64,000 nucleotides of DNA. Source: Actinomycetes bacterium. Lineage in GTDB: Bacteria; Actinomycetota; Acidimicrobiia; Acidimicrobiales; Bog-793. Every line of letters starts with the position of its first letter. Within the stretch, counting starts at the first letter, position 1. A program made the translations under genes and the position numbers. The stretch spans positions 6,441-70,440 of the forward strand of contig JAKCCH010000002.1 of the NCBI GenBank assembly GCA_021838945.1, written 5' to 3'. Shown in pieces: positions 1-15,720 of this stretch. The notes beneath the pieces were generated by a model. The model had not been told where the DNA came from. It was given only the letters and a program-made list of their open reading frames with translations, and made no database searches.

Positions 1-197
1 GGCACTGCAGCCGTCGGCGAAGTAGCGGCCTTCGACCCGGAGGGACGGGAGCGACGGCATCAGTGCTCTACCCGCTCCTTTCGACTGTCGTCGTCCGGGT
101 CGAGTCCGAGTACATGGTCGCGACCGTAGTGACCGCGCCGCTGGAAAGGCCGACTTGCAGTTCGACAGCACTCCTTGCACCGGCGCTAACATGTCCC

Positions 198-1289
198 ATG
201 GTCCGTCATCGTGTTGCGGCAGGAGTCGTTCTGGCAGCTGCCTGCCTCGTGACGGCGGCTTGCAGCTCTTCCGGGGGCAGTGCAGGCACCACCGACCGGC
301 GGGGTGGCAGTCCGACGGCGGAGGCCCACGGAACGGCGACCGTCGACTACGCCGGATCGCTCACCGGCCTCATGCAGACGAGCCTCGTCCCCGCCTTCCA
401 GAAGGCGACGGGCGACCAGGTCGTAGGCAAGGGTGCGGGTTCCTCGCTCATCGCCCAGGGCATCCTCGACGGCGAGCTCAGCCCCGGCGTCTTCGTGTCC
501 ATAGGCGAGAAGGCGATCACGTCGTTGTGGCCGGCGCATTCTCATTACGTCCTCGCGTTCGCGACCGATCCCCTCGTCGTCGCCTACTCGGCGAAGAGCG
601 AGTACGCCTCGCAGCTCGACGCCATCCGGTCGGGCCAGCGCCCGCTGAAGGACCTCTTCACACTTATGGAGAAGCCAGGGTTCCGCCTCGCGAGGACTGA
701 TCCCACGGCCGACCCGCAGGGCGCCTTCTTCATCCTCATGGTGCGTCTCGCGCAACGTGAGCTGCACCTGCCGGCGGGCACGGCCGACAGGATCCTCGGG
801 ACGTCGGCCTCCAACCCGATCGGCTCGTCGAGCCAGATCGTCGACGAGGACGCCATCGCGGCGGACATCGCGTCGGGCTCGGTCGACGCAGGGAGCGACT
901 TCGTGACAGAGGCGCGCCAGTTCCACCTCCGCTACATCACCTTGCCGCCCAGCCTCGACTTCGCCTCGCCATCCGACGCGAGCCTCTACGCCACGATGCG
1001 GCTCGATCTCTCCACCGGGCCGTTCACGGGCGGCCTCATCACGCTCACCGAGACCTACGTACTGCCACCGAGCGGCCAGGCGCGCTCGAGCGCCGACGCG
1101 AGCGCCGATGCAGCGTGGCTTGCCTTCATGCTGTCGACGAAGGGCCAGGCGCTGCTCCGGTCCGCCGGCTACCAGCTCGAGAAGCCGGTGCTGCAACTCG
1201 CGCCGGGCGTAGCCTCGGCCTCGGCCGCAATGCCGCCGCCCGTCCTCTCGGCATTCCACCGCCTCGGAGGAACGGTCTCGGGAGCGTGA
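198..1289 (+). CDS. Periplasmic molybdate/tungstate-type oxyanion-binding lipoprotein of an ABC importer (ModA/WtpA-like)
   Basis: In-frame ATG at 198 inside ORF 63..1289 gives MVRHRVAAGVVLAAACLVTAAC, a signal peptide with a lipobox-like Cys. The mature part looks like a family-1 solute-binding protein (YAGSLTGLMQTSLVPAFQKATG). RTDPTADPQGAF resembles the anion-binding loop of WtpA/ModA-type proteins as I recall them. The stop overlaps the next start (GTGA, 1286-1289). Confidence 0.75.
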   Translation: MVRHRVAAGVVLAAACLVTAACSSSGGSAGTTDRRGGSPTAEAHGTATVDYAGSLTGLMQTSLVPAFQKATGDQVVGKGAGSSLIAQGILDGELSPGVFVSIGEKAITSLWPAHSHYVLAFATDPLVVAYSAKSEYASQLDAIRSGQRPLKDLFTLMEKPGFRLARTDPTADPQGAFFILMVRLAQRELHLPAGTADRILGTSASNPIGSSSQIVDEDAIAADIASGSVDAGSDFVTEARQFHLRYITLPPSLDFASPSDASLYATMRLDLSTGPFTGGLITLTETYVLPPSGQARSSADASADAAWLAFMLSTKGQALLRSAGYQLEKPVLQLAPGVASASAAMPPPVLSAFHRLGGTVSGA

Positions 1290-2173
1290 CTGTGGCGATC
1301 CGCCGGGCAGGCACCGCCGCCGCGCTCGCGGGCACCGCCATCTGCTGGGTCCTGCTGCTCGCACCGCTCGCGGAGCTCCTGGCGCACATCTCCGGGCACG
1401 GGATCGCCCACACGCTCACACAGACAGGAAGTCCCGGCTACGGGCCGCTGTGGCGATCGCTCGTCGCCAGCGCCATCGCGCTCGTGCTCATGGTCGCGCT
1501 CGGCACCCCGCTCGCCTACCTGCTCGCCCGTGGACGCCTCCCGTTCCCACGGCTCGTCGAGGCCGGCCTCGTCATCCCGCTCGCCATGCCGCCGCTCGTG
1601 ATCGGGCTGCTACTCATCTTCCTCATCGGACCCGCGTCTCCGATAGGAGGACCGATCGACCGCATCAACCCGAACATCTTCGGGATCAACACGTTCTATG
1701 CCCTCGTCGTCGCCGAGTTCTACGAGGCGGCCCCGTACTACGTCCTCGCCGCTCATGCCGCCTTCTCGACCGTCGAGCGGCGTCTCGAGGAGGAGTCGCT
1801 GCTGCTCGGGGACTCGCCCCTCGCAGCCTTCCGGCGGGTGACGCTGCCCCTCGCCGCTCCGGGTCTCGCCGCTGGACTCTCGATGGCATGGGCCAGGGCG
1901 ATGGGCGCCTTCGGCGCGGTGGTCATCATCGCCTACAACCCGCCCGGCCTGCCGATGGCCATCGACACAGGGCTCCAGGCATTCGGGCTCGACGGCGCGC
2001 TCCCCTACGCCCTCCTGCTCGTCATCGCGGTTCTCCCGCTCCCCATCGTCACGTTGCTCTGGAGCTCGAGGGCCCGGGACGTCGAGGGACGGCACGACGT
2101 ATCGCTCCTGTCCGAAGAGCTTGTCGGCGGGCTGGCAGGGCTGCGGTCCCGCGAACAGCAGGAGACGGCGTGA
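1286..2173 (+). CDS. ABC importer permease (ModB/CysTW-type)
   Basis: GTG at 1286 overlaps the upstream stop. Multi-TM protein with an EAA-loop-like segment EEESLLLGDSPLAAFRRVTLPLAAPGL. The 5' part of ORF 1115..2173 overlaps the binding-protein gene and is discarded. Confidence 0.8.
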   Translation: MTVAIRRAGTAAALAGTAICWVLLLAPLAELLAHISGHGIAHTLTQTGSPGYGPLWRSLVASAIALVLMVALGTPLAYLLARGRLPFPRLVEAGLVIPLAMPPLVIGLLLIFLIGPASPIGGPIDRINPNIFGINTFYALVVAEFYEAAPYYVLAAHAAFSTVERRLEEESLLLGDSPLAAFRRVTLPLAAPGLAAGLSMAWARAMGAFGAVVIIAYNPPGLPMAIDTGLQAFGLDGALPYALLLVIAVLPLPIVTLLWSSRARDVEGRHDVSLLSEELVGGLAGLRSREQQETA

Positions 2174-3321
2174 CGCGGCTCGCAACCGGACTCGGCGCCG
2201 AGCCCGGGCTCGGTCCCCGCCTCGAGTCCGGCCTCGGCCGGGCGACGAGCGGCCGTGGGGCACCGGCTCTCGAGATCGCGGTCACGGTCCCCCGCCGCGG
2301 GTTCAACGTCGCCGTCGACCTCCGCATCGAACCGGGCGAGCGCCTCGCGCTCTTCGGTCCATCGGGAGCTGGCAAGACCACGATCGTCGACGCGGCGGCC
2401 GGTCTCGTCGAACCGGCGGCCGGCGCCGTCCGGCTCGGTGACCTCGTGCTGTCGCGGCCCGCCGCGCTCTCGGGGGCGGCCCGCCGCCGTCTGCGCAGCA
2501 CCCTCGCCGGGACGGCGCCGCCCGCTGCGGCGGTCGACCACGTCTCCGTAGTGCGCCAGCCGCCGGCGCTCTTCCCCCATCTCGACGTCGCTGCGAACGT
2601 CTCGTACGGGCGCTCTGACGAGCAACTCGGTGCGCTGCTCATCGGCAGGCTCGGTCTCGCCCGCCACCGGTCCGCCCGCCCGGCCGAGCTGTCGGGTGGA
2701 CAGGCCCAGAGGGTGGCGTTGGCGAGGGCGCTCGCGCGGCGTTTCTCCGTGCTGCTGCTCGACGAACCGGTCTCGGCGCTCGACGCCGCCACCCGCGCTG
2801 ACTGCTACGAGCTCATCTCGGAGCGATGCGAGGAGGAGGGAGCCATCGCCGTCCTCGTGACCCACGACCTGCACGAGGCACAGGCGTTCGGCAACAGGAT
2901 CGCCGTCATGGACGCAGGATCAGTGCTCGCTGTCGGGGACCCGCACGAGCTCGTGGCGGCTCCACGGATTCGCCGCGTCGCCGAGCTCGTCGGCTACCGC
3001 TCCTTCCTCCGGCTGCGGCCGGCAAGCTCGAGCACCGGGCAGGTGGAGCTGGCGCTGGACGCAACATCTCTCCAACCGTGCGACGTCGCCTCGCCCGACT
3101 CCGCGCTGACTGTTCGCGGGCGCGTCGCGTCATGCCGGCCTGCTGGGGCGAAGTTCCTCCAGAGCGTGCTCGTCCCGGCCGACACTCCAGTGGGCACCAC
3201 TCTCAGTGGTGAGTGGGTCACAGCGCTGACCTGCGAATTGCCGCTTCTGTTGACCTCACCTGTAACTGTGGGTAAGGAAATACTTGCGACTGCACCGACG
3301 CCGCTGGTGGTCGTGACCTAG
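2170..3321 (+). CDS. ABC importer ATPase with C-terminal regulatory-type extension (ModC/WtpC-like)
   Basis: GTG 2170 overlaps the permease stop (GTGA). Motifs: Walker A GPSGAGKT, Q-loop VVRQPPALF, signature LSGGQAQRVALARAL, Walker B LLLDEP, H-loop VTHD. An extra C-terminal domain of about 130 aa is present. The first 240 codons of ORF 1450..3321 are a spurious extension. Confidence 0.8.
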   Translation: MTRLATGLGAEPGLGPRLESGLGRATSGRGAPALEIAVTVPRRGFNVAVDLRIEPGERLALFGPSGAGKTTIVDAAAGLVEPAAGAVRLGDLVLSRPAALSGAARRRLRSTLAGTAPPAAAVDHVSVVRQPPALFPHLDVAANVSYGRSDEQLGALLIGRLGLARHRSARPAELSGGQAQRVALARALARRFSVLLLDEPVSALDAATRADCYELISERCEEEGAIAVLVTHDLHEAQAFGNRIAVMDAGSVLAVGDPHELVAAPRIRRVAELVGYRSFLRLRPASSSTGQVELALDATSLQPCDVASPDSALTVRGRVASCRPAGAKFLQSVLVPADTPVGTTLSGEWVTALTCELPLLLTSPVTVGKEILATAPTPLVVVT

Positions 3322-3351
3322 GCAACGCTCCACCAATGCAGGGAGGCTTTC

Positions 3352-4497
3352 GTGGCTAATGACGCGAAGCGGCAATCAGACGACCGCCTGAGGCTGACAC
3401 GACTCGCCCGCGGGCTGTCTCAGGGAGATCTCGCCCGCACCGCCGGTGTCACCCGGCAGGCCATCTCGGGCATCGAGTCGGGACGATGGTCTCCATCACT
3501 CGATGTGGCGCTGTCGCTCGCGACTGCGCTCGACTCGACCGTCGAGGAGCTCTTCGGATCAGCCGCGGACGCTCCGCCCATCCGGAGTCGCCTCGCCGTG
3601 GCGGCCGACCCCCCTGGATCCGAGAGCGGCGAGGGCCGGCTGATCCTGGCCGAGGTTGCCGGAGATCTCGTGGCGTTCCCGCTGACGGGCGATCACACGA
3701 TGGTGCCCGGCTTCGCGCCCGCGCTGGCGTCGGGTCCGATCGCTGTGGACGGCGCCGACGGTTCGGGTCCCCGGCCACGCTCGGCACGGTCACGTGACAT
3801 CGAGGCTCGCCGGATCGCGGCCCCGACCGCGACGCTGACGGTTGCCGGGTGCGACCCGGCGCTCGCGCTGCTGCTCGGGCCGCTCCAGCGGCACGACCCG
3901 CCGGTGAGCCTGGCGTGGTGGGCGACCTGCAACGCCAACGCGATGGAGCTCCTCGAAGCTGGCGCCATCCACGCCGCCGCCATCCATCGCGGCGCCGAAG
4001 CCCGTACCCGGTCACGTCCCGGGATCGAAGTCGTCGGGTTCGCCGGCTGGCGTGAGGGCCTCGCCTTCCACCCCCGGCACCGCGGGAAGATCCGCGACAT
4101 CGGCGACGTCGTGCGCCTTGGCCTCCGCATCGCCAACCGGGAGCTCGGCGCCGAGTCCAGGCGCCTGCTCGACATCGAGCTCAGCCGGCTGAAGCTCGAG
4201 CCCGCACACGTCAACGGCTACGCGAGCGTCGTGAACGGCCACCTCCTCGCGGCGTCGGCCATAGCCGCCGGGCTCGCCGACGCCTCCATCATCTCCGAGC
4301 CGGCCGCCTTGTCCTACGGTCTCGAGTTCATCCCGTGGCAGGAGGAGCTGTCAGAGCTGCACATCCCCCGTTCGCTCGTGGGCAGCGTCGAGGTCCGGGC
4401 GCTGTTGGACGTGCTCGCCGGCCGCGAGCTCCCGGCACAGCTGGGCGCTCTCGAGGGGTACGACCCGGAGCCCTGCGGGCGAATCCTCGCCGCCTGA
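3352..4497 (+). CDS. One-component regulator: XRE-type HTH fused to a periplasmic-binding-protein-like (molybdate-binding-type) domain
   Basis: GTG 3352 is preceded by GGGAGG 5 nt upstream. The N-terminus LTRLARGLSQGDLARTAGVTRQAISGIESGRWSPSLDVALSLATAL is a classic XRE HTH. The C-terminal 250 aa or so (TLTVAGCDPALALLLGPL...) looks like a PBP-type ligand domain. It sits directly downstream of the Mo/W ABC genes. Confidence 0.7.
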   Translation: MANDAKRQSDDRLRLTRLARGLSQGDLARTAGVTRQAISGIESGRWSPSLDVALSLATALDSTVEELFGSAADAPPIRSRLAVAADPPGSESGEGRLILAEVAGDLVAFPLTGDHTMVPGFAPALASGPIAVDGADGSGPRPRSARSRDIEARRIAAPTATLTVAGCDPALALLLGPLQRHDPPVSLAWWATCNANAMELLEAGAIHAAAIHRGAEARTRSRPGIEVVGFAGWREGLAFHPRHRGKIRDIGDVVRLGLRIANRELGAESRRLLDIELSRLKLEPAHVNGYASVVNGHLLAASAIAAGLADASIISEPAALSYGLEFIPWQEELSELHIPRSLVGSVEVRALLDVLAGRELPAQLGALEGYDPEPCGRILAA

Positions 4498-4588: not shown

Positions 4589-5310
4589 CTAGAAGCGCGC
4601 CATCCCGATGGTGTCCGACACGTGGGGCCGGCCGAGCCACTTGGCGGCACCGTAGGCGAAGACCGACCCGTTCTTCTCGACGAGCCAGTAGCCGTCGCCG
4701 AAGGCCGTGGCTGCCATGCCGACGATCGGGGAGGCGAGCTGCTCGTGGGCGGCCGAACCGTGGAACCTGGCGGCTCCGAAACGGAAGACCGACCCGTTGG
4801 CGGCCGCCAGCCAGTAGCCGTTCCCAGCAGTCGTTGTCGCCATGGCGACGATGGCGTACTTGAGGTGCGAGGCCGAGCCGTAGCCCTTGGCGTCTCCGAA
4901 GTGGTAGACGTGGCCGTTCGCCCCGGCCAGCCAGTAACCGCGCCCGTCGGGGGTCGAGGCGATGGCGACGATGTCCTTCACCCGGCGTGCTGAGCCGTAT
5001 CCCTTCGCGTCCCCGTAGTGGAAGACGTGGCCGTTCGCCCCGGCCAGCCAGTAGCCGCGGCCGTCTTCGGTCGTGGCGATCCCGACGATGTCGTCGACCT
5101 TGCTCGTGCGTGCCGAGCCGTAGTACTTCGCGCCCCCGAAGTGGAACACGGCCCCGTTCCGCCCTGCAAGCCAGTATCCCCCGCCGTCGGGCGTCGCGGC
5201 GATCCCGACGACGTCGCTCACCTTGCGTGGCGAGCCGAAGCCGCTCGAGGCGTGGAAGTGCGCGACCGCTCCGTTCGAGCCGGCGATCCAGTAGCCGAGC
5301 GGTGGCGTGA
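4589..5310 (-). repeat. Tandem coding repeats of about 117 bp (the GYWL module)
   Basis: The 27-mer gtggccgttcgccccggccagccagta occurs at 4910-4936 and again at 5027-5053, an offset of 117 nt. Neighbouring units are visibly similar at the DNA level. Confidence 0.7.
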
Positions 5311-7372
5311 AGCTCGAGACGATGGCGCCGCCGAAGCCCGTCGCCCAGCAGCCGTACTTCGTGCAGGAGACACCCGGGGTGCCGTGGGCACGCGAGGGCG
5401 GAACGTCCCTCTTCCACTGGGCTCCGCCGTCGGTCGTGGAGAGAATGAGCGGCGGATGCCCCGGCGCATCGAAGCCTGTGCCGCCGGTCGCCGTGCAATC
5501 CGAGTCGTTCCGGCACGAGACGCTGGGCAGGCCCCAGGTCTCGTTCGTGGGAACCGAGATCGCCGGCGACGGCTGCTTCCACGTGGTGCCGCCGTCGGTC
5601 GTGTACAAGATGCCGGCCACATTGCCCGAGCTCGGGAACCCCGTGATCACGCAGTGCAGGGTGTCGTGGCACGAGACGCCGTGCAGATTCGTGGTGACAG
5701 GGCTCGTCTGGGGGACCCACGTCGACCCACCGTTGGAAGTGTGCAGGACGGTGCTGCGTTCTCCGACGACGACGCAGACACTCGTGGTCGGACAGGAGAC
5801 GCCGTAGAGCGGATCGGATGCGCCGGATGCCTGTGCCGTCCAAACGGCTCCCCCGTCGGTCGTGTGCAGGATGGTCCCGGCGTTCCCGAGGATGAAGCAG
5901 GTGCTCACCGCCGGGCAGGAGACTCCCCACAGTTTCTCGGAGGTCCCCGACGTCTGAGACTTCCAGGTCACCCCGCCGTTCGTGGTGGCAAGGATCACGC
6001 CGGTATTCGCGGTCTTTTCGTAGCCCGTGACGATGCAGTCAGACGTGCTCGCGCACGAGATCGCGTGCAGGGCGCCCGTCCCGGCAGCCCCCTGGTACAC
6101 CTGGAACCAGTGGATGCCGTCCAGCGTCTCGAAGATCACGTCGGCACCGGCACCGCCGTTGATCGGCCCCGCACCGCCGACGGCGAAGCACTGCGTCGGC
6201 GCCGGGCACGAGATGGAGTCGCCCCCGGTCGTGCCGAGTTTGCGCACAAGCGTACGCGGCTCTTTCATCCCCCAGCTCTTCCCGCCGTCGGTCGTGTAGA
6301 GCACATCCGCGCCCGTCGTCGAGTTCACGTGGCTCGTGCCCGCGACGCACCCCGAGGTGCTGTAGCACGCGATCGAAGGGATCGTCGCCGTCGAGCCGGA
6401 CGTCCCTGCCGCCCACAACGTCCCACCGTCAGTCGTGTAGACGATGGCACCTGAGGCGCCCGCGGCCACGCACGAGGTCGTGCTCGCACAGGACACGCCC
6501 CACAGGTCTTGGTTCACGGTCGATGTCTGGGGGCTCCAGGACGAGCCGCCGTCGGTCGTTGCGATCACCGTGCCCGAACTGCCAGTCGCGACGCAGGCGC
6601 TGCGCGTCGGGCACGAGACGGCATACAAGTCGTTGCCGTTGGGCGAGGTCTCGGCACTCCACGACGTGCCGCCGTCAGTGCTCTTCAGCACCGTGCCGCC
6701 GTAGCCCACGGCGAAGCAGGTCGTGGCAGTCGGGCAGGAGGCCCCGGTGAGCTCTTTGGTCGTGCCGGAGGTCGCGACCTTCCACGAGCTTCCGAAGTCC
6801 GTCGTCGTGATGACGAGCCCGCCCAGTCCGACAGCGACGCAGTCGCTGCTCGAGCCGCACGAGACGCCCTTCAGATTTGCCCTGGCCGACGTGAAGACCG
6901 ATGCAGGCATCGTGAGGAAGGACCAGCTGCGCCCACCGTTGGTCGTGCGCACCGCACTCGGCTCCTGTTCGTCCTGCGGTTGGCCCATCTGCGCCCCGAC
7001 TGCGACGCATCGGGAAGACGTTGGGCAGGAGATGCCGTCGAGGCCGTTCTGCATCGGGCCGATGTCTTCCTCGGGGCTCCAGCTCTGCCCTCCGTTGGTC
7101 GTCTTCGCGATCTGGGGGACGGCGCCGAAGGTTCCGCCGACGACCCAGCACGTCTTCGTCCCCTTCACGCAGCTCGACCCGTGGTACTCGTACGGTGTGA
7201 ACCCGACCGGAGCCTGCAGCCGCCAGCTGGTGCTGGCGGTCGTGAGCGCGTTGCCCGACGCCCCGGCGCTCGAGCTCGGTGAACGGAAGAGGGCCGGGAC
7301 CGCCAAGGCCGTCGTCAGTGCAAGCACCGATGTCGGAACCGCGATCAGGAACAGACGTCGAGTCGTGCGCAT
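4589..7372 (-). CDS. Secreted 927-aa two-module repeat protein: Cys-pair Asp-box (BNR/Ycf48-like) beta-propeller repeats plus C-terminal GYWL repeats
   Basis: ATG at 7372 gives MRTTRRLFLIAVPTSVLALTTALAVPALF (signal peptide); the ORF-track start at 7423 is a TTG. There are 13 [ST]-x-[DN]-G-G-x-x-W motifs (TTDGGSSW, TTNGGQSW and similar). Each follows a [VI]SC-x5-7-C-[VF]A.G motif, of which there are 14 Cys pairs. Six C-terminal repeats have the form GYWL(A)G.NG.VF.FG.A...GS. Confidence 0.8.
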   Translation of the reverse strand: MRTTRRLFLIAVPTSVLALTTALAVPALFRSPSSSAGASGNALTTASTSWRLQAPVGFTPYEYHGSSCVKGTKTCWVVGGTFGAVPQIAKTTNGGQSWSPEEDIGPMQNGLDGISCPTSSRCVAVGAQMGQPQDEQEPSAVRTTNGGRSWSFLTMPASVFTSARANLKGVSCGSSSDCVAVGLGGLVITTTDFGSSWKVATSGTTKELTGASCPTATTCFAVGYGGTVLKSTDGGTSWSAETSPNGNDLYAVSCPTRSACVATGSSGTVIATTDGGSSWSPQTSTVNQDLWGVSCASTTSCVAAGASGAIVYTTDGGTLWAAGTSGSTATIPSIACYSTSGCVAGTSHVNSTTGADVLYTTDGGKSWGMKEPRTLVRKLGTTGGDSISCPAPTQCFAVGGAGPINGGAGADVIFETLDGIHWFQVYQGAAGTGALHAISCASTSDCIVTGYEKTANTGVILATTNGGVTWKSQTSGTSEKLWGVSCPAVSTCFILGNAGTILHTTDGGAVWTAQASGASDPLYGVSCPTTSVCVVVGERSTVLHTSNGGSTWVPQTSPVTTNLHGVSCHDTLHCVITGFPSSGNVAGILYTTDGGTTWKQPSPAISVPTNETWGLPSVSCRNDSDCTATGGTGFDAPGHPPLILSTTDGGAQWKRDVPPSRAHGTPGVSCTKYGCWATGFGGAIVSSFTPPLGYWIAGSNGAVAHFHASSGFGSPRKVSDVVGIAATPDGGGYWLAGRNGAVFHFGGAKYYGSARTSKVDDIVGIATTEDGRGYWLAGANGHVFHYGDAKGYGSARRVKDIVAIASTPDGRGYWLAGANGHVYHFGDAKGYGSASHLKYAIVAMATTTAGNGYWLAAANGSVFRFGAARFHGSAAHEQLASPIVGMAATAFGDGYWLVEKNGSVFAYGAAKWLGRPHVSDTIGMARF

Positions 7373-7486
7373 GGGCGGACGATAGTCCGGTCCAGCTGGC
7401 GCTGCACCGATGGTTCGGCGCAACGCCGCGTGAGAAAGGGTCGCGCGCCGGATTGCGCGGCCTCTGCCGTGTTGCGGCGACCTCGA

Positions 7487-9022
7487 CTACGTCGGTGGGA
7501 CGCCGGGAACGGGAGGCGTGAGGGTGAGCGGGAGTGCCGCCTCGTAGCCCAGCCCTCGGCCGTGTCCGCCGCCCGTGCCGGAGCCGGGCGAACGCAGCTG
7601 CTCCTCGGGCGGACGGATCGGACCGAGGAGACCAGCCCAGAGGGCAGCGTTCGTCACCTGTGCAGCCGCCGCTATCAGGAACGGCACGGCGAGGCTCACC
7701 TCCTCGAACAAGTACCCCACCAAGGCATGCGCCCCCGCCTGCACGCCCTGAGAGGGCAGGTTCGACCAGGCAGCCATCCGGCCACGCTCGGAAGCATGTG
7801 CGACGCCCTGTACGTACGACTGCCTGAGCGGCATGCCGAGTCGCTGCACGAGTTGACGGAGCGAGAACACGACACCCGCGACGGCGAAGTCCGGCGCGAA
7901 GGCAAGGGGCAGCAGCAGAAGCCCTTGAGCGGCTCGGAGCACTGCCACGGACCTCACCGTGCCGACGCGCCGGGCGAGCGGCGAGGCTGCCAGCAGTGCG
8001 GCCAGCGATACGCCGTTCGCTATCGCGTACACGACACCGATCTCGCCGGGCGTCGGGCCGAACCTGCGGTGGAGCCAGTAGGCGAAGAGCGGCCCTACGA
8101 CGACAGTTGCCAGCCCGTTGGTGGAATTGGTGAGGAGCAACCGCCACAGGACCCGCCAGGACCGGCGCGGGACGACGACCGACTCCCGTCCGCGGCCGCC
8201 CTGCTCCGCCCCTGCAGTGCGCGTCCGGGGCGCCCGCCGCCCTTCGGGCTCCTGCTCGGAGACCGCAGCCCCGCCCGGGACCGCAGCCCCGCCCGGAACC
8301 GCAGCCCCGCCCGGGAGCGCAGCCGGCTCAGCCGGTGGCTCCGGGGCGCGCCCCAGCCACGCGGCGAGGAACGACGCCGCCGCGGCCAGCCACGCGACGA
8401 AGAGGAACGCAGGACGGTACGAGACGGTGGCACTCCTCACCATGGCCGCCGTCGGAGCGCTCGAGAACCCAACCGCCCGCGCCGTACCCGCGAGGAGGCT
8501 ACCGAGCAGGGCGCCTCCAGTCGAGGCGATCGCCAGCCAGGCGAAGGTCGAGTTCCGCCGGAGAGCAGGCACTATCGCCGAGACATAGGCCGATTCGGCG
8601 GGTTGGTGCGGCCCGACCGAGGCTCCGCCGGCTCCCTGCCCGCGCCCGATGCTCCCGAGGGCGATCCCCACCTCGAGCACGATCGCCTGGCCCGAGTAGG
8701 CCATCATCAGCGCCCCGGCGGTGAGCAGGAGGGGTGAAGCCACGAGCAGTGCTCGCTGGTCGACCCGGTCGGCAAGCGCGCCCACTGCCACGGCCAGGAC
8801 GGCGGAGGCGGCCGTCATGACGAGGAACGTCACACCGATCCTCAGCGCCGAGAAACCGACCGATGCCAGATAGAGCGCCGCGACGACACCCGCGAGAGCG
8901 CGGGCTCCGCCGAGGAAGGCCCTCGCTGCGAGCACGATCCCGAGATCGCGCCCGATGCCGGGCCGCAAGCGACGGATCAGCTCGGACATGGCCGCCGGTC
9001 GTGCCGCTCGCGACGCCGGCAC
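7487..9022 (-). CDS. MFS transporter (last gene of the cyclase-mosBA operon)
   Basis: Polytopic hydrophobic protein with a long central loop. The start is either GTG 9022, 18 nt after the upstream stop, or ATG 8989 (MSELIRRL). It is co-directional with the TupA-like gene and directly downstream of it. Confidence 0.75.
   Translation of the reverse strand: MPASRAARPAAMSELIRRLRPGIGRDLGIVLAARAFLGGARALAGVVAALYLASVGFSALRIGVTFLVMTAASAVLAVAVGALADRVDQRALLVASPLLLTAGALMMAYSGQAIVLEVGIALGSIGRGQGAGGASVGPHQPAESAYVSAIVPALRRNSTFAWLAIASTGGALLGSLLAGTARAVGFSSAPTAAMVRSATVSYRPAFLFVAWLAAAASFLAAWLGRAPEPPAEPAALPGGAAVPGGAAVPGGAAVSEQEPEGRRAPRTRTAGAEQGGRGRESVVVPRRSWRVLWRLLLTNSTNGLATVVVGPLFAYWLHRRFGPTPGEIGVVYAIANGVSLAALLAASPLARRVGTVRSVAVLRAAQGLLLLPLAFAPDFAVAGVVFSLRQLVQRLGMPLRQSYVQGVAHASERGRMAAWSNLPSQGVQAGAHALVGYLFEEVSLAVPFLIAAAAQVTNAALWAGLLGPIRPPEEQLRSPGSGTGGGHGRGLGYEAALPLTLTPPVPGVPPT
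8261..8330 (-). repeat. 18-bp tandem repeat, about 3.5 copies, inside the MFS central loop
   Basis: gaccgcagccccgcccgg at 8261-8278 and 8279-8296, aaccgcagccccgcccgg at 8297-8314, then a partial copy. It encodes (VPGGAA)x3. Confidence 0.85.
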
Positions 9023-9040
9023 CTCATCGTCGCGGGACCG

Positions 9041-10345
9041 CTATGCGCTCGTGGCGGCGGCGGGCCAGAACGTGGGGTTCGCAAACCCGGGCTCTCTGAA
9101 ATCCAACACCGCAGCCTGAGCCGCCGGTGTGGTCAGGTACTCCTGGAAGGAACGGGCACCTGGGGCGTTGACACCGGCCACGCGCTGCGGGTTCACGATG
9201 ATGCTCACCATGGTGCGCTGCAGGACGGGATCCGTCGTCACGAGCGGCTCGAGCTTTCCCTCGACCACTCCGAGCGACGCGCTCTCGTCGCCCCAGACGG
9301 TATAGGCACCGAGCCTGGCGGCCTCTTGCAGGAGAGCTGTCCCCACTGCAGTCGATCGGACGTACCACGCGCCCTGCTCCACCTTGGCGGCCGATACCAG
9401 CAGCTGGTCGAGGAAGTCGATCCTCACGTCGAGCGCGGCCGCGAGGAATTCGCTCCCGTGGCTCGCGATACGTCGGACCGCCTCGGTGCCGCTCGACAGG
9501 CCCCTCACGCCTGCGGGATCCGAGACCGGCCCGACGAGAACAGCCTGGTTCGCGAAGACGGCCATCGGCCAGAGGCCGTAGCCTTCGAGGACGAAGGCGC
9601 CGGTCGTCATGGTCCCCGAGCTCGCGCCGGCCGGGAAGGTCATGTTGCCCGGGAGCAGCGCTGCGCTCGCCACCGCGCCTGTGCCGAGGCCACCTCCACC
9701 CCCCGAGCCGTTCCCGTGACGATGGCCCTCGCCGCTTCCGGGGATCACCCCGGAGCCGGGACCGCCGCCGCCACCTGTGCCCCCACCCTCGCCACTCCCG
9801 GGAATGACGCTCGACGAGCTCCCGTGGCCTCCGCCGCCGGAGCCCGAACCCGAACGCCCGCCGGCGCCCGAGCCCCCGCCGGAGCCCGAGCCCGCGCCCC
9901 CGCCGGTGCCCGGTCCCTCTCCGCTTCCCGGGATCACTCCCTTGACCTTCGTGTGCGAACCGGTGCGGCCGGGATGCCGAGATGGCTGGCCGACGTGGAA
10001 GAAGTGGACGATCAGGAGATCGGCGTCGCCGTTGATCCCGGGCGTGAAGACGTCGTTCGTGGGCTGGAACTCCACGCGCAGCGCGGGGTTCACGGACTCG
10101 AACGACTGGGCGAGCATCGGCAGCAGCCCGCTCGAGTACGGGGTGTACACCGTCGCGACCCGGATCAGGTCGGGATGCTTCGCGGGCGAGATCTCGTCCG
10201 ACGCCGCGAGCTTCGCCCCAGGCGTGCTCGTGGGTGTGCAGGCAGCCCCGACGACAGCCGCCCCGCCGAGGGTGGCCAAGCCGAGGAAGGTGCGTCTCCC
10301 CAGCTGGCCCGGCTTCAGGCGTCCTTCGTCATCTCCTGCTGCCAC
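9041..10345 (-). CDS. Tat-signal lipoprotein, TupA-like tungstate/molybdate-binding protein with a large Gly-rich insertion
   Basis: GTG 10345 lies 8 nt after GAGGAG; the track start at 10351 is a TTG only 2 nt from the SD. A twin-arginine motif GRRTFLGLATLGGAAVVGAAC precedes the lipobox Cys. IRVATVYTPYSSGLLPMLAQSFE, DLLIVH and ANQAVLVGPVSDPAGVRG resemble TupA-type proteins as I recall them. Confidence 0.65.
   Translation of the reverse strand: MAAGDDEGRLKPGQLGRRTFLGLATLGGAAVVGAACTPTSTPGAKLAASDEISPAKHPDLIRVATVYTPYSSGLLPMLAQSFESVNPALRVEFQPTNDVFTPGINGDADLLIVHFFHVGQPSRHPGRTGSHTKVKGVIPGSGEGPGTGGGAGSGSGGGSGAGGRSGSGSGGGGHGSSSSVIPGSGEGGGTGGGGGPGSGVIPGSGEGHRHGNGSGGGGGLGTGAVASAALLPGNMTFPAGASSGTMTTGAFVLEGYGLWPMAVFANQAVLVGPVSDPAGVRGLSSGTEAVRRIASHGSEFLAAALDVRIDFLDQLLVSAAKVEQGAWYVRSTAVGTALLQEAARLGAYTVWGDESASLGVVEGKLEPLVTTDPVLQRTMVSIIVNPQRVAGVNAPGARSFQEYLTTPAAQAAVLDFREPGFANPTFWPAAATSA
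9677..9991 (-). repeat. Low-complexity Gly/Ser-rich coding insert with three VIPGSGEG anchor repeats
   Basis: The protein segment GQPSRHPGRTGSHTKVKGVIPGSGEGPGTGGG...SVIPGSGEGGGTGGGGGPGSGVIPGSGEGHRHGNGSGGGGGLGTG interrupts the binding-protein fold between DLLIVHFFHV and the PGNMTFPAG...FANQAVLVGP part. Confidence 0.8.
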
Positions 10346-10357
10346 GGCCAAACTCCT

Positions 10358-11242
10358 CTAGCCAACGTCGAGATCGGGCCCGCTCGGCTCGCCGCCAAGT
10401 GGGCGAGGCGCCTCGATCAAGCTGCCAACCGGCTCACCCTCGAGCGCTCTGCTGAGCATCTTCGGGACGGTGCCGTTCACGACCTGCACGGTCCTGCAGT
10501 GGCGGCCGAGCGGGAGAAGATCGAGGAGCAATTCGTCGAAGGGCAGTGTCTTCGGGCGGCCTTGCCGGAGCTCGTCCACGGTCATCCGGTCGAAGCGGGT
10601 AGCACCGGCATCCGTCTTCGGATCGCTCGAGTAGAGCCCGTCGACGTCCTTCACCAAGATCACGCGATCCGCTCCGCAGATCTCCGCGAGCAGGTACATG
10701 CCGACGTCGGTCCGGTTTGCGGGGATGCGCCCGATCATCGGAGGGTGCTCCCAGAGCTCGAACGGGGGCACCCCGTTCACGACGACGGCGTTGCCGAGGC
10801 TGAGCAAGGCGGGGAGGAGATGCGTCACGAGCGGTGGCGGGAGCGACACCACGCCGAAGCGCGCCAGCAACGCCGCCACGATGTGCGCGTTCTGCTCAGC
10901 GTCGGTGGCCGAGAGGGCGGCGAGCACGCCGGTCGGCAGACCGAGGTCGAGGCCGACCCCGAACACGTGCCTCGACCGGGACCCACCGCCCACCCCGATG
11001 ATGATCTTGTGCTCTCTCATCGCGAGCTCGAGCTCGTCGAGCACCGGGCCGAGGCGTTCGCTGCCGTGGTCGATGATGCTTCGGCCGCCGAGCTTGATCA
11101 CCTTCACGAACGGGAGGAGCGGCACGACGTCGGTCGCCGTGCTGAGCCTGGTCGCCTGCGAGAGCAGGGAGTCTCGCATCAAGAGGGACGAGAGGTGGCG
11201 GTTCCCGCCGAGGTCCAGCTGATCGTCTTCGTTTACCGACAT
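10358..11242 (-). CDS. mosA: Molybdenum storage protein alpha-subunit-like (amino-acid-kinase/UMP-kinase fold)
   Basis: ATG 11242 (MSVNEDD) follows GGGAG. The alternative ATG 11260 overlaps the upstream gene by 8 nt. [59 protein letters not shown] and [24 protein letters not shown] match my recollection of A. vinelandii MosA ([38 protein letters not shown]). Confidence 0.7.
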   Translation of the reverse strand: [294 protein letters not shown]

Positions 11243-11252
11243 CCCATCTCCC

Positions 11253-12098
11253 TCACGCATGGATGATCGTCCCGACGTGCTCGCCCTTGAGCGCCCGAGT
11301 CAGGTTGCCGGGCACCAAGCCGTTGACGATGTGCACTGAGCGGACGTGCCGGGCCCGACCCATGAACTCGAGAACCGCCCTCTCGATCACGATGTCGTCG
11401 AAGTCCTCCGAGAGCAGGTCCGCGGCGGCGATCTCCGGTATGAAGCGGGCGCTCGGGTCCCGCTTCGGGTCGTCGCTGTACAGGCCGTCCTCGTCCTTCA
11501 CATAGATCATGGAACGGGCACCGAATACCTCGGCGACGAGGTAGGTGCCGGTGTCGGTCCGATGCGGCGGTATGAGACCCACGTCCGGATTGTGCTCCCA
11601 GTAGGTGTAGGGAGGCATGCCGGGGAAGACGACGGCATGGCGCTCCTCGAGGTAGATCGGGAGCTGTGCGAACTCCACTGGGGTGATCACGGGGATCCCG
11701 TGCTTGGCGAGGAGGTAGCCGAGGATCCGGGCGTTCTGCATCGCCACACCGGTACCGAGCATGGTGAGGACGCCCGTCGGAAGGCGAAGGTCCACCCCGA
11801 CGCTGTAGGCATGCCGCGCCCTCGTGCCCGCTCCCGTGCCGATGATCAGGCGGTGCTCCGGAAGGAGGCTCTCGATCTCCTCGAGGAGCGGGAACACTGC
11901 CCGCCTGCCCCGGTCGATGATGCTCTGCCCACCGATCTTGATGACGGTTGCCGACGGCAGCAGGCGGGTGTCGAGCCCCTCTCCTGTGTCGGCGAGTAGG
12001 GAAACGTCCGCCAGCGACCCCTCGAGAAGGCGGTCGGCGAGCAGACCCGGAGCGTCAGCCATGGCGGGCGAGGCTACCAAGCGCGGAAGGGTGGTCAC
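11253..12098 (-). CDS. mosB: Molybdenum storage protein beta-subunit-like (amino-acid-kinase/UMP-kinase fold)
   Basis: GTG 12098 overlaps the cyclase stop (GTGA); the alternative start is ATG 12062. ATVIKIGGQSIIDRGRRAVFPLLEEI, LIIGTGAGTRARHAYSVGVDLRLPTGVL, FPGMPPY, IPPHRTDTGTYLVAE, IYVKDEDGLY and IVNGLVPGNLTRALKGEHVGTIIHA are near-identical to the A. vinelandii MosB stretches I remember. Confidence 0.75.
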   Translation of the reverse strand: MTTLPRLVASPAMADAPGLLADRLLEGSLADVSLLADTGEGLDTRLLPSATVIKIGGQSIIDRGRRAVFPLLEEIESLLPEHRLIIGTGAGTRARHAYSVGVDLRLPTGVLTMLGTGVAMQNARILGYLLAKHGIPVITPVEFAQLPIYLEERHAVVFPGMPPYTYWEHNPDVGLIPPHRTDTGTYLVAEVFGARSMIYVKDEDGLYSDDPKRDPSARFIPEIAAADLLSEDFDDIVIERAVLEFMGRARHVRSVHIVNGLVPGNLTRALKGEHVGTIIHA

Positions 12099-13381
12099 GA
12101 AGCCCCTGCGTGACCCCCGTCAGCCACACCCATCGCGCCGATCACGCGCTCCCCGCGTGCGCGGAGCGTGGCGAGCTCCGAGCTCATGTCCGAGAGGCGG
12201 CGCCACCGGTGGCCGGACCGGCGCTCCTCGGAGGTACCCGTACCGGCATGACGCACCTGCCAGAGCTTCACGCGACCGATGTCCTTCAGCTCGCGCGGCT
12301 TGAGGGGCGCCCATACGAGGTCGTCGGGGTCGCCGTCCGGCAGCACCTGGATCTCCGCCCTGACCTCGTCGCCGGCGAGCACTGTGCCGGCGTCCGCGAT
12401 CGACACGGTTCGATGGGCGCGATTCACCACGCTGCCGAAGAAGTCACCCTCCCGCAAGAGCACGGGGCCAGTAGCCAGGCCCACCCTGACATCGGACAAC
12501 AGCTCGTCGTCCGCGTAGGCGTCGACGAGAGAGAGAGCGATCCTCACGGCGTCGAGAGGCTGGCTCGCCACGAACATGACCTCGTCACCGATCATCTTCA
12601 CGGGACGGCCGCCGCCGCCCACGACCGTGGAGTGCGCCAGATCCTCGAAACGATCGACCAGCTGGGCCAGAGCATCCGCAGAGAGCTGCGAGCTGAGCGC
12701 CGTGAACCCGACCATGTCCGCAAAACCCACCGTCATCCTCGTCAACATCGAGCTCTCGTACGAGCCGTCACGGCGCACGGACGCGAGCCGGCGTGCGGCG
12801 GCCTGGATGTGGCGGCGCCACGCATAGACGAGCAGCTTCTCCATGCTCGGGAACACAATCTCGGAGGAGAAGGCGATGGCCTCGGCGAGCAGGAGGCCCT
12901 CGCCCCCGGCTTCGGTCGCCCACGCGGGACGTCCTCCGTCCTGCGCCGCGGCGTCGGCGGACGCGACGAGCGCGTCCGCTAGGCGCGCCATCGACTGACC
13001 GAGCACGCGTGTCACCTGGACCGAAGTGTCCGCTCCCGAGACGCCGAGCTCGGTGAGCCCGCGGATCGTGCGCAACGCGTCGACGTCCTGCTCGTTGAAC
13101 ATCGGAGTGGCGCCCGGCTCCGGGAAGCCGAGCGCGCGCCAGAGCTTTCCTGCCTCCTCGAGAGGCATACCCGAGGCCTCGCTGATCTCGGGGCCGGTCA
13201 TGTCTCTCGACTCGTGCGGCATGAGCAGGCGGTCGATGACAAGGAGGTCCACCCGATCCTCGGCGAGAGCTCGCTCGAACTCCTCCTCGGAGGACCCGCG
13301 GGCGAGCAGCAACGTACGGAGTGCCGCGACGATGTCCTCCCGGCAACTCGAACCGAAGACCGGTGCGCTCTTGGCCTCCAC
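12095..13381 (-). CDS. Class III adenylate/guanylate cyclase with an N-terminal non-membrane domain of about 200 aa
   Basis: GTG start at 13381. The catalytic core has FADMVGFTALS (metal Asp), VKMIGDEVMFV (substrate Lys plus second metal Asp) and GSVVNRAHR (transition-state Asn/Arg). No TM segments. Confidence 0.8.
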   Translation of the reverse strand: MEAKSAPVFGSSCREDIVAALRTLLLARGSSEEEFERALAEDRVDLLVIDRLLMPHESRDMTGPEISEASGMPLEEAGKLWRALGFPEPGATPMFNEQDVDALRTIRGLTELGVSGADTSVQVTRVLGQSMARLADALVASADAAAQDGGRPAWATEAGGEGLLLAEAIAFSSEIVFPSMEKLLVYAWRRHIQAAARRLASVRRDGSYESSMLTRMTVGFADMVGFTALSSQLSADALAQLVDRFEDLAHSTVVGGGGRPVKMIGDEVMFVASQPLDAVRIALSLVDAYADDELLSDVRVGLATGPVLLREGDFFGSVVNRAHRTVSIADAGTVLAGDEVRAEIQVLPDGDPDDLVWAPLKPRELKDIGRVKLWQVRHAGTGTSEERRSGHRWRRLSDMSSELATLRARGERVIGAMGVADGGHAGAS

Positions 13382-13440
13382 GCCGCTCCTTCCGAGACTC
13401 GGTGTCAGGCTACCTGTCCCGGTGAGCCGTCCCCCTTAGC

Positions 13441-14016
13441 ATGGCTCGGGTGAAGGCAGTTCTCGTACCCGTGAAGGCGTTCCACGACTCGAAGCTGCGC
13501 CTCGCGCCCGTGCTGGCGCAACCCGGCCGTGCGGCGCTCGCGCGTGAGCTCGCGGCTCGGGTCATCCTCGCCGCGTCGCCCTTCCCCGTCTCGGTCGTGT
13601 GCGACGACCACGACGTGGCGGCATTCGCCGAGTCCCTCGGAGCTGCCGTCATCTGGACGCCGGGACGCGGGTTGTCGGGTGCCGTCGAAGAGGGAGTCGC
13701 CCGCCTGGCGGACACCGGCGCCCGGGTGGTCGTAGTCGCCCATGCCGACCTGCCCCGCGTGAGCAGCTTCGGTCGCATCGGAGACGCCGGCAGTCGCTCT
13801 CCCTCGGTCACGATCGTGCCAGACCGTCGCCGGGACGGGACGAACGTGATCGCGGTGCCGGTGGGGATGGGCTTCCGTTTCTCGTACGGACCGGGGTCGT
13901 TCGGGCGTCACCTCACCGAGGCGGTGCGTCTCGGGCTCGAGTGCGAGGTCGTGGAGGACGACGACCTAGCTGCCGATGTCGACGTGCCGTCCGACCTCGA
14001 GCTGCTCGCCCGCTGA
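13441..14016 (+). CDS. fbiD: Phosphoenolpyruvate/2-phospho-L-lactate guanylyltransferase (F420 biosynthesis, CofC/FbiD)
   Basis: MARVKAVLVPVKAFHDSKLRL..., VVVAHADLP and PDRRRDGTNV are typical CofC/FbiD strings. The length of 191 aa fits. Confidence 0.75.
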   Translation: MARVKAVLVPVKAFHDSKLRLAPVLAQPGRAALARELAARVILAASPFPVSVVCDDHDVAAFAESLGAAVIWTPGRGLSGAVEEGVARLADTGARVVVVAHADLPRVSSFGRIGDAGSRSPSVTIVPDRRRDGTNVIAVPVGMGFRFSYGPGSFGRHLTEAVRLGLECEVVEDDDLAADVDVPSDLELLAR

Positions 14017-14065
14017 GGCCTGCACCTTCCTGCCTCAGTCGGCCTCCCCGATATCGTCGGCGATC

Positions 14066-14815
14066 ATGCCGACATCTCCCACGACGAACCTGTCCGTCCC
14101 GAGCATCGCCCTCGCCATAGGAGCCCATCCTGACGACATCGAGTTCGGTGCCGGCGGCACCCTCGCCAAGTGGGCGGCGAGCGGTTGCGAGATCCACCAT
14201 CTCGTCTGCACGGACGGGTCCAAAGGAACCTGGGACGCTTCGCAGGATCCGGCTGAGCTCGTTGCAGTCCGGCGCGAGGAGCAGCGCGAAGCGTCGCGAG
14301 CCCTCGGTGGCAGGGGCGAGGTGGTCTTCCTCGGCTGGCACGACGGTGAGCTCGACTCCGGTCTACGTCAGCGGATCGAAGTCGCGTCGTGGATCCGGAG
14401 GGTCCAGCCCGACGTGGTGCTCGGTCACGATCCATGGAAGCGCTACCGGCTCCACCCCGACCACCGTCATGCCGGTTTCCTCGTGACCGACGGGATCGTG
14501 GCGGCCAGGGACCCCCTCTTCTTCCCCGAGCTCGGCACGGAGCCGCACCGCCCGACGACTCTGCTGCTGTGGGAAGCCGACGAGGCCGACCACGTGGAGG
14601 ACGTGACCGGCTTCGAGGAACGCAAGATCAAGGCGCTCCTCGCTCATCGGAGCCAGTTCCGCTCGACGATGGGGATCTCCACACACAAGTGGCCCGACGA
14701 GGACAACCCGGAGATCGCCGGCTTCCGCAGTCACGTCCTCAACCGCCTCGGCGAGCACGGTGCGCTCGCCGGGCTCGAGCGAGGCGAAGCGTTCAAGCGG
14801 ATCGAGCGGCTCTGA
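14066..14815 (+). CDS. PIG-L/LmbE-family deacetylase
   Basis: In-frame ATG 14066. ALAIGAHPDDIEFGAGGTLAKW carries the HPDD zinc motif, followed later by HPDHRHAG. Confidence 0.8.
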   Translation: MPTSPTTNLSVPSIALAIGAHPDDIEFGAGGTLAKWAASGCEIHHLVCTDGSKGTWDASQDPAELVAVRREEQREASRALGGRGEVVFLGWHDGELDSGLRQRIEVASWIRRVQPDVVLGHDPWKRYRLHPDHRHAGFLVTDGIVAARDPLFFPELGTEPHRPTTLLLWEADEADHVEDVTGFEERKIKALLAHRSQFRSTMGISTHKWPDEDNPEIAGFRSHVLNRLGEHGALAGLERGEAFKRIERL

Positions 14816-14862
14816 CCGGCGGTGGCGGCGTCGGCAAGGCGAGGCTCGGGCCAGACGGACGC

Positions 14863-14900
14863 GACAGGTCCCGGTAGTCGAACGACCACCGGGACCTGTC
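14863..14900. terminator. Perfect 13-bp stem hairpin between convergent genes
   Basis: GACAGGTCCCGGT-agtcgaacgacc-ACCGGGACCTGTC. It lies between the stop at 14815 (+) and the stop at 14923 (-). Confidence 0.55.
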
Positions 14901-14922
14901 GGACGAGTCTGAGAAGCGGAGC

Positions 14923-15552
14923 TCAGCGCTTCTTCGTGGCCTTCTTCGTGGCCTTGGCAGCCGACGTCTTCTTTGCCGAAGCCTTCGTCGTGGCGGCCTT
15001 CTTGGCCGGAGCTTTCTTGGCCGGAGCCTTCTTGGCCGGAGCCTTCTTGGCTGGGGCCTTCGTCGTGGGGGCCTTCTTGGCCGGAGCCTTCTTGGCCGGG
15101 GCCTTCTTCACCACAGCCTTCTTCGCAGGCGCCTTGTTCGCCGCAGTCTTCTTGGCAGGAGCCGCCTTCGCAGGCGCCTTCTTCGCCACCGCCTTCTTGG
15201 CAGGCGCCTTGTTGGCGGCAGTCTTCTTCGCCGGCGCTGCTGCGGCCGCTGGCGCACCCGGCGCCGGCAGGGCTCCGCGACTGTTGAGCGCCGCCTTCAA
15301 CGTGGCACCCGGCGAGAAGGCGATGCCCTTCGATGCCGGGATTCGAACTGCCGCACCCGTCTGCGGGTTGCGACCCATGCGAGCGGAACGGGCGCGCGGA
15401 CGGAACGTACCGAAACCGGTGATCCGCACGACGTCCCCGCCCTTCACCGCAGACGTGATCGCGTGGATCGTGTGCTCGATGGCCGACTCAGCCTCACGAC
15501 GGCCCAATCCCGCCGCCGCGCTCACTCGACCGATGAGCTCTGTTCTGTTCAC
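14923..15552 (-). CDS. hupB: HU-family nucleoid protein with Lys/Ala/Pro-rich C-terminal tail (HupB/MDP1/HupS type)
   Basis: GTG 15552 lies 5 nt after AGGAGG. The HU fold is visible in [28 protein letters not shown]...[41 protein letters not shown] tail of about 110 aa made of (P)AKKA repeats follows. Confidence 0.9.
14926..15265 (-). repeat. Degenerate tandem coding repeats (AKKAPAKK tail of HU)
   Basis: The plus strand shows reiterated gccttcttggccgg(a/g)gc units. The translated minus strand is [30 protein letters not shown]... Confidence 0.85.
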
Positions 15553-15720
15553 CGTCACCTCCTGTTGAGACGTGAGAAGTCCCACCCATACAAGAGGAAT
15601 TCTGTAAGAAAAGCAAGCATCACCGGCGCGCGAAAGGCGAGTGCCGTTGAAAACGGCGGCGTTTCGGGGCAGGTGTGCCTGGATGCCTCGGTGAGACTGC
15701 TCCGGCCCTGGAGGGGGAAA

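Follow-up and report, generated by a model that had tools for sequence, protein, structure and literature searches.

The window analysed here is a stretch of 64,000 nucleotides (64 kb) of contig JAKCCH010000002.1 from an Acidimicrobiales actinobacterium; positions are counted from its first letter. Its minus strand carries two adjacent genes, here called AAK1 and AAK2, that are related to the beta (MosB) and alpha (MosA) subunits of MoSto, the molybdenum storage protein from Azotobacter vinelandii, followed by a gene for a solute-binding protein related to TupA. MoSto forms an (alpha-beta)3 cage, in which more than 100 molybdenum or tungsten (Mo/W) atoms are accumulated in an ATP-dependent manner. 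The three genes lie between those for a cyclase and for a transporter of the major facilitator superfamily (MFS), and this part of the window is arranged as follows:

12095..13381, minus strand: Rv1264-type class III adenylyl cyclase (PF16701 and PF00211, match to 1y10)
12071..12076, minus strand: -10-like hexamer TAGCCT, a candidate promoter, conserved in four relatives and placed 8 nt upstream of ATG 12062
11253..12062, minus strand: AAK1, MosB-type (beta, putative catalytic) subunit, 269 amino acids (aa) from ATG 12062, assigned by phmmer and hidden Markov models (HMMs)
10358..11242, minus strand: AAK2, MosA-type (alpha) subunit, 294 aa from ATG 11242, assigned by PDB scores and the second-gene HMM
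9041..10345, minus strand: divergent TupA-related solute-binding protein, 434 aa, with PDB matches and no Pfam or NCBIfam match
7487..9022, minus strand: MFS_1 transporter, lineage-specific, with a start between 8989 and 9022 (PF07690, 2.7e-21)

An earlier note on this DNA had described five minus-strand genes with almost no spacers between them, and all five open reading frames (ORFs) are present where it placed them. The tetranucleotide GTGA, common to the cyclase stop codon and the start of the next ORF, is found at 12098-12095. The AAK1/AAK2 junction can be read as an 8-nt overlap or, from ATG 11242, as a 10-nt gap, and gaps of 12 nt to GTG 10345 (binding protein) and 18 nt to GTG 9022 (MFS) follow. 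At full length the ORFs span 11253-12098 for AAK1, 10358-11260 for AAK2 and 9041-10351 (436 aa) for the binding protein; GGGAG lies 6 nt 5' of ATG 11242. The two middle genes are, as had been proposed, paralogues of the amino-acid-kinase fold: both match PF00696 (AA_kinase), and their products are 42% identical to each other.

In the phmmer search of the PDB, AAK1 gave 305 bits (4e-90) with MosB (2ogx_B), 218 bits with MosA and 37 bits with the best uridine monophosphate (UMP) kinase. AAK2 gave 207 bits with MosB, 187 bits with MosA and 56 bits with the UMP kinase PyrH. The MoSto scores of the pair exceed the PyrH scores by 150-270 bits. The NCBIfam equivalog cut-offs for PyrH are 158 bits (TIGR02076) and 244 bits (TIGR02075), and both proteins fall below them, with 59.7 and 32.9 bits for AAK1 and 64.6 and 24.5 bits for AAK2. 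The earlier note had named better scores to PyrH than to MosA/MosB as grounds for abandoning a MoSto assignment; the opposite was found, and the identity of the pair as PyrH is therefore rejected. The note had also stated that the signature stretches match MosB and MosA almost residue for residue. This is so for the motifs, where pairwise alignment of the quoted stretches gave 21/26, 20/28 and 22/24 identical positions with MosB and 14/17 with MosA (the A. vinelandii MosA reference sequence is 100% identical to 2ogx_A). The match is limited to the motifs, since the identity over the whole length is 54% for AAK1 and MosB and 40% for AAK2 and MosA.

Because the score of AAK2 to MosB is slightly above that to MosA, separate HMMs of the first-gene and second-gene families were built from the tandem pairs of 80 genome loci, with the closest relatives of the window left out. 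AAK1 gave 438 bits with the first-gene model versus 297 with the second-gene model, and A. vinelandii MosB 363 versus 291. With the second-gene model AAK2 gave 336 bits versus 232 with the first-gene model, and A. vinelandii MosA 251 versus 224, a small margin in the latter case. On these profile scores AAK1 and A. vinelandii MosB are members of the first-gene family, and AAK2 and A. vinelandii MosA of the second-gene family. In the loci of Azotobacter chroococcum and Nitrotoga (L090, L091), a 270-aa gene of MosB length precedes the MosA homologue; from this order and the clade HMMs, the beta-then-alpha arrangement is common to the window and the classical loci. The tandem pair of paralogues is kept in almost all of the 80 surveyed loci. 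A midpoint-rooted neighbour-joining tree of 156 subunits placed the long branch of A. vinelandii MosA on the first-gene side, and this placement was rejected as a rooting artefact.

The window pair shares with A. vinelandii MoSto (PDB 2OGX, 4F6T, 6GU5) not only the tandem arrangement of beta-then-alpha amino-acid-kinase-fold paralogues, but also the features of the beta subunit that handle the nucleotide and the oxyanion. Met149 of beta, which Brunle et al. in PNAS in 2019 reportedly proposed to gate the entry of molybdate, is conserved in AAK1 and in 78/78 homologues, as are the nucleotide-binding motifs KIGGQS and VKDEDGLY. The residues L15, R17 and L20 of the alpha N-terminal arm are conserved in the clade, and a His is invariant across it at the position of A. 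vinelandii alpha-160.

Relatives of the pair were found by genome scan in at least 506 GTDB species. The best 80 of these belong to Acidimicrobiales, other Actinomycetota, Chloroflexota, Acidobacteriota and Planctomycetota, and also to Myxococcota, Gemmatimonadota, Proteobacteria, Bacteroidota and Cyanobacteria. A metagenome protein search gave about 8000 relatives, many of which carry the name 'molybdenum storage protein' at the Joint Genome Institute (JGI), whereas NCBI calls them 'uridine kinase' or 'hypothetical'. Identity to A. vinelandii MosA is 82% or more for each of the 120 proteins nearest to it, the same lower bound holds between members of this classical group, and their hosts include Azotobacter, Azoarcus, Nitrotoga, Rhodocyclus and Methylocystis. 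Judged by its 40% identity, the alpha-like subunit of the window lies outside this group, and the pair, unlike A. vinelandii MoSto, falls in a separate clade. The description of the genes as an actinobacterial MoSto is correct as to the host, the closest GTDB match being a metagenome-assembled genome (MAG) of Acidimicrobiales; the genes are not unique, however, their homologues being numerous and in part labelled already by JGI. In the open-access literature on the molybdenum storage protein no description or survey of the clade was found, and one paper of 2019 treated MoSto as a protein without known homologues (PMC6448029). Fusion forms of the family exist as well, since the 732-aa protein P0292 carries a MoSto-like domain at residues 454-728.

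The product of the third gene is matched over both lobes to TupA-type structures of the PDB (3muq 1.3e-16, TupA 5my5 4.2e-12, 3lr1 1.4e-9). No match was found in Pfam or NCBIfam, and the Pfam search stayed empty after removal of the insert described below. Like TupA (PDB 5MY5, 3LR1, 3MUQ), with which it shares significant homology (1e-16 to 1e-9), the protein keeps the equivalent of His59. The N-terminus RRTFLGL...GAAC, with an RR signal and a Cys, suggests export by the twin-arginine (Tat) route and possibly lipidation. Unlike TupA, it contains a Gly/Ser/His-rich insert of about 125 aa (residues ~120-245, window 9650-10000), which follows a conserved His116 at the hinge and holds repeated V(I/V)PGSG(E/Q)G units. 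The length of the insert varies among the Acidimicrobiales homologues, and the Rubrobacteraceae homologue in L073 has none. Relatives of the binding protein are few: a search of 5.8 billion proteins gave 28 at E<1e-5, and JGI labels relatives as tungstate-transport binding proteins. Unlike in TupABC systems, neither TupB nor TupC is adjacent, the next gene being the MFS gene in the window and a BNR protein gene in relatives.

Gene neighbourhoods were compared by tblastn of the window proteins against 80 genome loci and five metagenome loci, that is, 85 other loci with the pair. The nearest independent relatives of the window pair, at 77-81% identity, are L005/L086, L085, L087/L088 and L089. 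In these, modC, modB and modA lie on one strand, divergent from the mosB-like and mosA-like genes. A homologue of the binding protein is found directly 3' of the pair in L005/L086, L085 and L087/L088, with L089 as the exception, and a gene for a BNR/Ycf48-like secreted protein usually comes next. In L085 and L087 the BNR homologue comes after the binding protein, and in L005 and L007 it flanks the pair; the BNR/Ycf48-like neighbour has C-terminal GYWLAG..NG.VF.FG repeats and no known link to metal handling. In L007 the binding-protein homologue heads a modABC operon. The window itself carries a BNR gene and, beyond it, mod-like genes together with a regulator:

4589..7423, minus strand: secreted BNR/Ycf48-like repeat protein, 944 aa (PF14870), a recurrent neighbour of the pair
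63..4497, plus strand: ModA/WtpA-like binding protein, permease, ATPase and a regulator with HTH_3 and PBP_like (PF12727) domains, assigned by Pfam

The only permease and ATPase genes of the ATP-binding cassette (ABC) type are the mod/wtp-like ones at 1115-3321. The binding protein of this transporter gave a weak WtpA match in NCBIfam, and the C-terminus of the regulator matches the PBP domain of the MoeA fusion PRK14498. The set resembles ModABC/WtpABC importers with Mo-responsive regulators; unlike the ModE systems, in which HTH_1 is combined with TOBE, the window regulator combines HTH_3 with a PBP_like domain of the COG1910 type. Of the independent relatives, the five closest all have a modABC-type transporter beside the pair, as do 13-14 of the 77 wider loci, and the classical Nitrotoga locus has a ModE/TOBE/modABC context. 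The window pair is linked, as in classical MoSto loci, to genes of molybdate transport and regulation. Both the binding protein as a conserved downstream partner of the pair in the close relatives and the link to Mo/W uptake, by way of the molybdate/tungstate ABC transporter genes and the PBP_like regulator near the locus, are thereby supported.

The cyclase and the MFS transporter were found by tblastn in 0/85 other loci; contigs of the same organism were the one place where they occurred. The genes that stay together are three, those of AAK1, AAK2 and the binding protein. Across the close relatives and the wider clade, the synteny therefore makes the Mo/W link recurrent and the five-gene unit not, and the idea of a five-gene operon for sensing, uptake and storage, put forward in the earlier note, is not supported and matters less, since no more than these three genes stay together.

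The region upstream of AAK1 also bears on this idea. A pattern T(T/C)G(C/G)TA(G/C)(C/T)CT, followed after 7-8 nt by ATG or GTG, is found in the window and in L089, L085, L087 and L005. In the window it contains TAGCCT at 12076-12071, with TGG before the hexamer as an extended -10, and lies inside the 32-nt spacer 3' of the cyclase stop codon; relatives in which modA, and not the cyclase, lies upstream keep it too. The actinobacterial -10 element has the form TANNNT and is placed in this way for leaderless mRNA. By analogy, TAGCCT suggests itself as a candidate promoter of a leaderless transcript starting at ATG 12062. On four public MAG contigs AAK1 is called from ATG 12062, and A. vinelandii MosB aligns with AAK1 from the Met at this codon. 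On account of the conserved element, the gene calls and the MosB N-terminus, ATG 12062 is likely to be the start of AAK1, and GTG 12098 is probably not the real one. The GTGA, which had been taken as a coupling of the cyclase with AAK1, would therefore be an upstream in-frame GTG, and the coupling is not upheld, AAK1 keeping its own conserved promoter-like element 3' of the cyclase stop. Read-through from the cyclase into AAK1 may occur, since no terminator-like site was found. A candidate operator of 19 nt, GTGTCAAGGACCACTTGCG (with CAAG-N5-CTTG inside), was seen in the divergent modA-mosB spacer of L005 (6680-6710) and L089 (930-960). It is absent from the window, where the 17-nt element conserved in these spacers had no match even with 3 mismatches allowed.

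The cyclase has the domains Ad_Cy_reg (PF16701, 8e-11) and Guanylate_cyc (PF00211, 5e-10) and matches Rv1264 (1y10) along its full length, over residues 27-384, at 6e-28 and 101 bits. The catalytic positions FAD, K.IGD, GD.fG, N and R align with those of Rv1264 (D, K, D, D, N, R); the protein is probably active as an adenylyl cyclase, and its regulatory domain probably autoinhibitory. The two domains are arranged as in Rv1264, a pH-sensing adenylyl cyclase from Mycobacterium tuberculosis (PDB 1Y10/1Y11); the match is weak, however, and, unlike Rv1264, the cyclase stands beside MoSto-like genes, a placement unique to the lineage of the window. The MFS protein gave a generic MFS_1 match alone, and the PDB search returned no solved relative. 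Its central cytoplasmic loop contains an 18-nt tandem repeat encoding PGGAAV (window 8261-8324) in 3.6 copies; on the near-identical MAG contig L001 (13739-13820) the same repeat is present in 4.6 copies, a copy-number polymorphism. Nothing was found that ties the MFS transporter to the binding protein, as the earlier note had assumed, and to our knowledge no MFS transporter depends on a binding protein. The cyclase and the MFS transporter are tied to Mo/W by position in one lineage only, and are incidental or recent additions.

Further genes of the window concern its general setting. A TraG/TrwB-type coupling protein of a type IV secretion system (22321-23763), a TrwC relaxase (23694-26327) and a WYL/PafC-like regulator (26407-28503) suggest, from their sequences, that some 10 kb away from the locus lies an element that is conjugative or mobilisable. 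Upstream of the cyclase, at 13441-15585, lie genes for CofC (F420 biosynthesis), a PIG-L deacetylase and an HU protein with a Lys/Ala-rich tail. These are typical actinobacterial markers and fit an assignment to Acidimicrobiales.

The locus is read here, with moderate confidence, as one that serves molybdate/tungstate homeostasis in an actinobacterium of the Acidimicrobiales type, with a MoSto-family pair as its core and the gene of an exported binding protein after it. The core would be a probably leaderless unit starting at ATG 12062, in which the MosB-type subunit is followed by the MosA-type subunit, and the two products would form a heteromer of the MoSto family. By analogy with A. vinelandii MoSto, from which we infer the storage function of the pair, the beta subunit would bind ATP and the oxyanion and drive the latter through the Met149 gate into an (alpha-beta)3 cage. 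The third gene would supply an exported TupA-related binding protein with a re-modelled anion site, which most likely supplies the ModBC/WtpBC-type importer nearby. The cyclase and the MFS transporter would be recent lineage-specific neighbours, maybe co-transcribed by read-through.

A number of observations weigh against this reading, and the first of them concerns the alpha subunit. In A. vinelandii, alphaGlu129 and alphaHis156 are covalent ligands of Mo8, and alphaHis140 is the ligand of Mo3/W3 on the threefold axis (PMC4504029). Unlike A. vinelandii MosA, AAK2 has Pro, Leu and Glu at the positions of Glu129, His140 and His156, and the A. vinelandii residue is present at these positions in 0/76 second-gene homologues, the clade consensus being P, S and F at 129, 156 and 140, respectively. 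In classical MosA relatives the ligand motifs are kept: PPYHHHE in 119/120 and Y(V/I)EHP in about 107/120. Conservation of the ATP-site and cluster-pocket residues is thus confirmed for the nucleotide motifs and Met149 of beta and fails for the covalent cluster ligands of alpha; the ATP-driven part looks intact, and the best-characterised cluster anchors appear to be missing. As judged from these residues, the loss weakens strict membership in MoSto and is compatible with storage, since A. vinelandii MoSto holds many of its clusters non-covalently too (PMC4504029). As the alpha subunit is without Glu129, His140 and His156, any metal-oxo clusters would be kept in place by non-covalent contacts or by other residues, e.g., by the clade-invariant His at the A. 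vinelandii alpha-160 position.

The binding protein raises a similar difficulty. The residues that define TupA and are needed for Mo/W binding are the TTTS motif, Arg118 and Thr124 (PMC5517513). In the HMMER alignment, TTTS is replaced by TVYT, Arg118 by Ala305 and Thr124 by Ile311, and TVYT/TVFT is conserved in four clade members. The name of a TupA-like binding protein is therefore apt as regards homology to solved TupA structures, and the signature residues of TupA are absent. Arg310, five residues past the position of Arg118, is invariant in clade members and might, as a speculation, substitute for it. Among the 77 wider loci, 38 have an S-adenosylmethionine (SAM) methyltransferase directly upstream on the same strand, about 17-23 have an ABC-2 type exporter directly downstream and 18 have a multicopper oxidase nearby. 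None of these has an obvious relation to Mo storage; they hint that the function of the clade may exceed simple Mo storage. Examples of wider-clade neighbours (loci L005-L084) are found at L055:6873-7793, L053:9244-10032 and L055:10709-12304. Mo/W enzyme genes and nif genes were not found within the 64-kb window. From A. vinelandii MoSto the window pair differs in its actinobacterial host, with no nif genes in the window, and in its partners, a TupA-like putative lipoprotein, a BNR protein, an MFS transporter and a cyclase. Scans of 7200-13700 with sigma-70 and intrinsic-terminator consensus patterns were empty, which is uninformative for an actinobacterium with 70% GC.

These observations could also mean that the pair is a MoSto homologue with another job, acting on another oxyanion (tungstate, vanadate or phosphate) or activating an oxyanion in an ATP-dependent manner without forming clusters. 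The clade-wide loss of all three covalent ligands, the frequent linkage of the wider clade to the methyltransferase, the ABC-2 exporter and the multicopper oxidase, and the families of tungstate type nearby (a weakly WtpA-like binding protein of the transporter and a TupA-related one in the operon) speak for it. Against it stand the strict conservation of the catalytic and gating features of beta, the non-covalent clusters of A. vinelandii MoSto and the recurrent linkage to modABC-type genes; such a change of function is rather unlikely. Much less credit is given to a single five-gene operon, in which sensing by a cAMP/cGMP cyclase, uptake by the binding protein with the MFS transporter, and storage by MoSto would be integrated, with translational coupling of the cyclase to MosB. 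All five genes are co-directional with gaps of at most 51 nt, no terminator-like site was found between them, and the catalytic set of the cyclase is intact. However, the cyclase and the MFS transporter are missing even from the relatives at 77-81% identity, a conserved promoter-like element separates the cyclase stop from the AAK1 start, the GTG of the GTGA overlap is neither a gene-caller start nor supported by homology, and in L007 the binding protein is placed in the modABC operon. The view of both genes as common UMP kinases (PyrH), or as some other enzymes with the amino-acid-kinase fold, can practically be dismissed. Some homologues are indeed named 'uridine kinase' at NCBI, and both proteins give weak matches to PyrH, IPK and aspartate kinase; their scores to MoSto are far higher, the PyrH cut-offs are missed by about 100 bits, and the family is maintained as a tandem hetero-pair.

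A further reading is a rather doubtful and tentative proposal. A MoSto branch present in hundreds of species of at least ten phyla, most of these species belonging to phyla not known for N2 fixation, would keep the ATP-driven 'pump' of beta and either form or hold its metal-oxo clusters on another alpha template or handle another oxyanion (e.g., tungstate). Acidimicrobiales would have recruited an exported TupA-derived protein, in which a Gly/His-rich insert replaces the anion-site loop, and one lineage would couple the locus with cAMP signalling and an MFS transporter.

MoSto itself is already known; what is new, on the sequence comparisons made here, is a widespread uncharacterised clade of the family with a TupA-derived partner specific to the clade. 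In the literature MoSto passes for a peculiarity of a few diazotrophic proteobacteria; the clade of the window is far larger and extends over many phyla. If it is true that the clade stores Mo or W, then cage-type metal storage would be a general bacterial strategy, and the cluster chemistry would not be fixed by the covalent ligands of alpha. If the clade does not store these metals, the MoSto family would have a second function.

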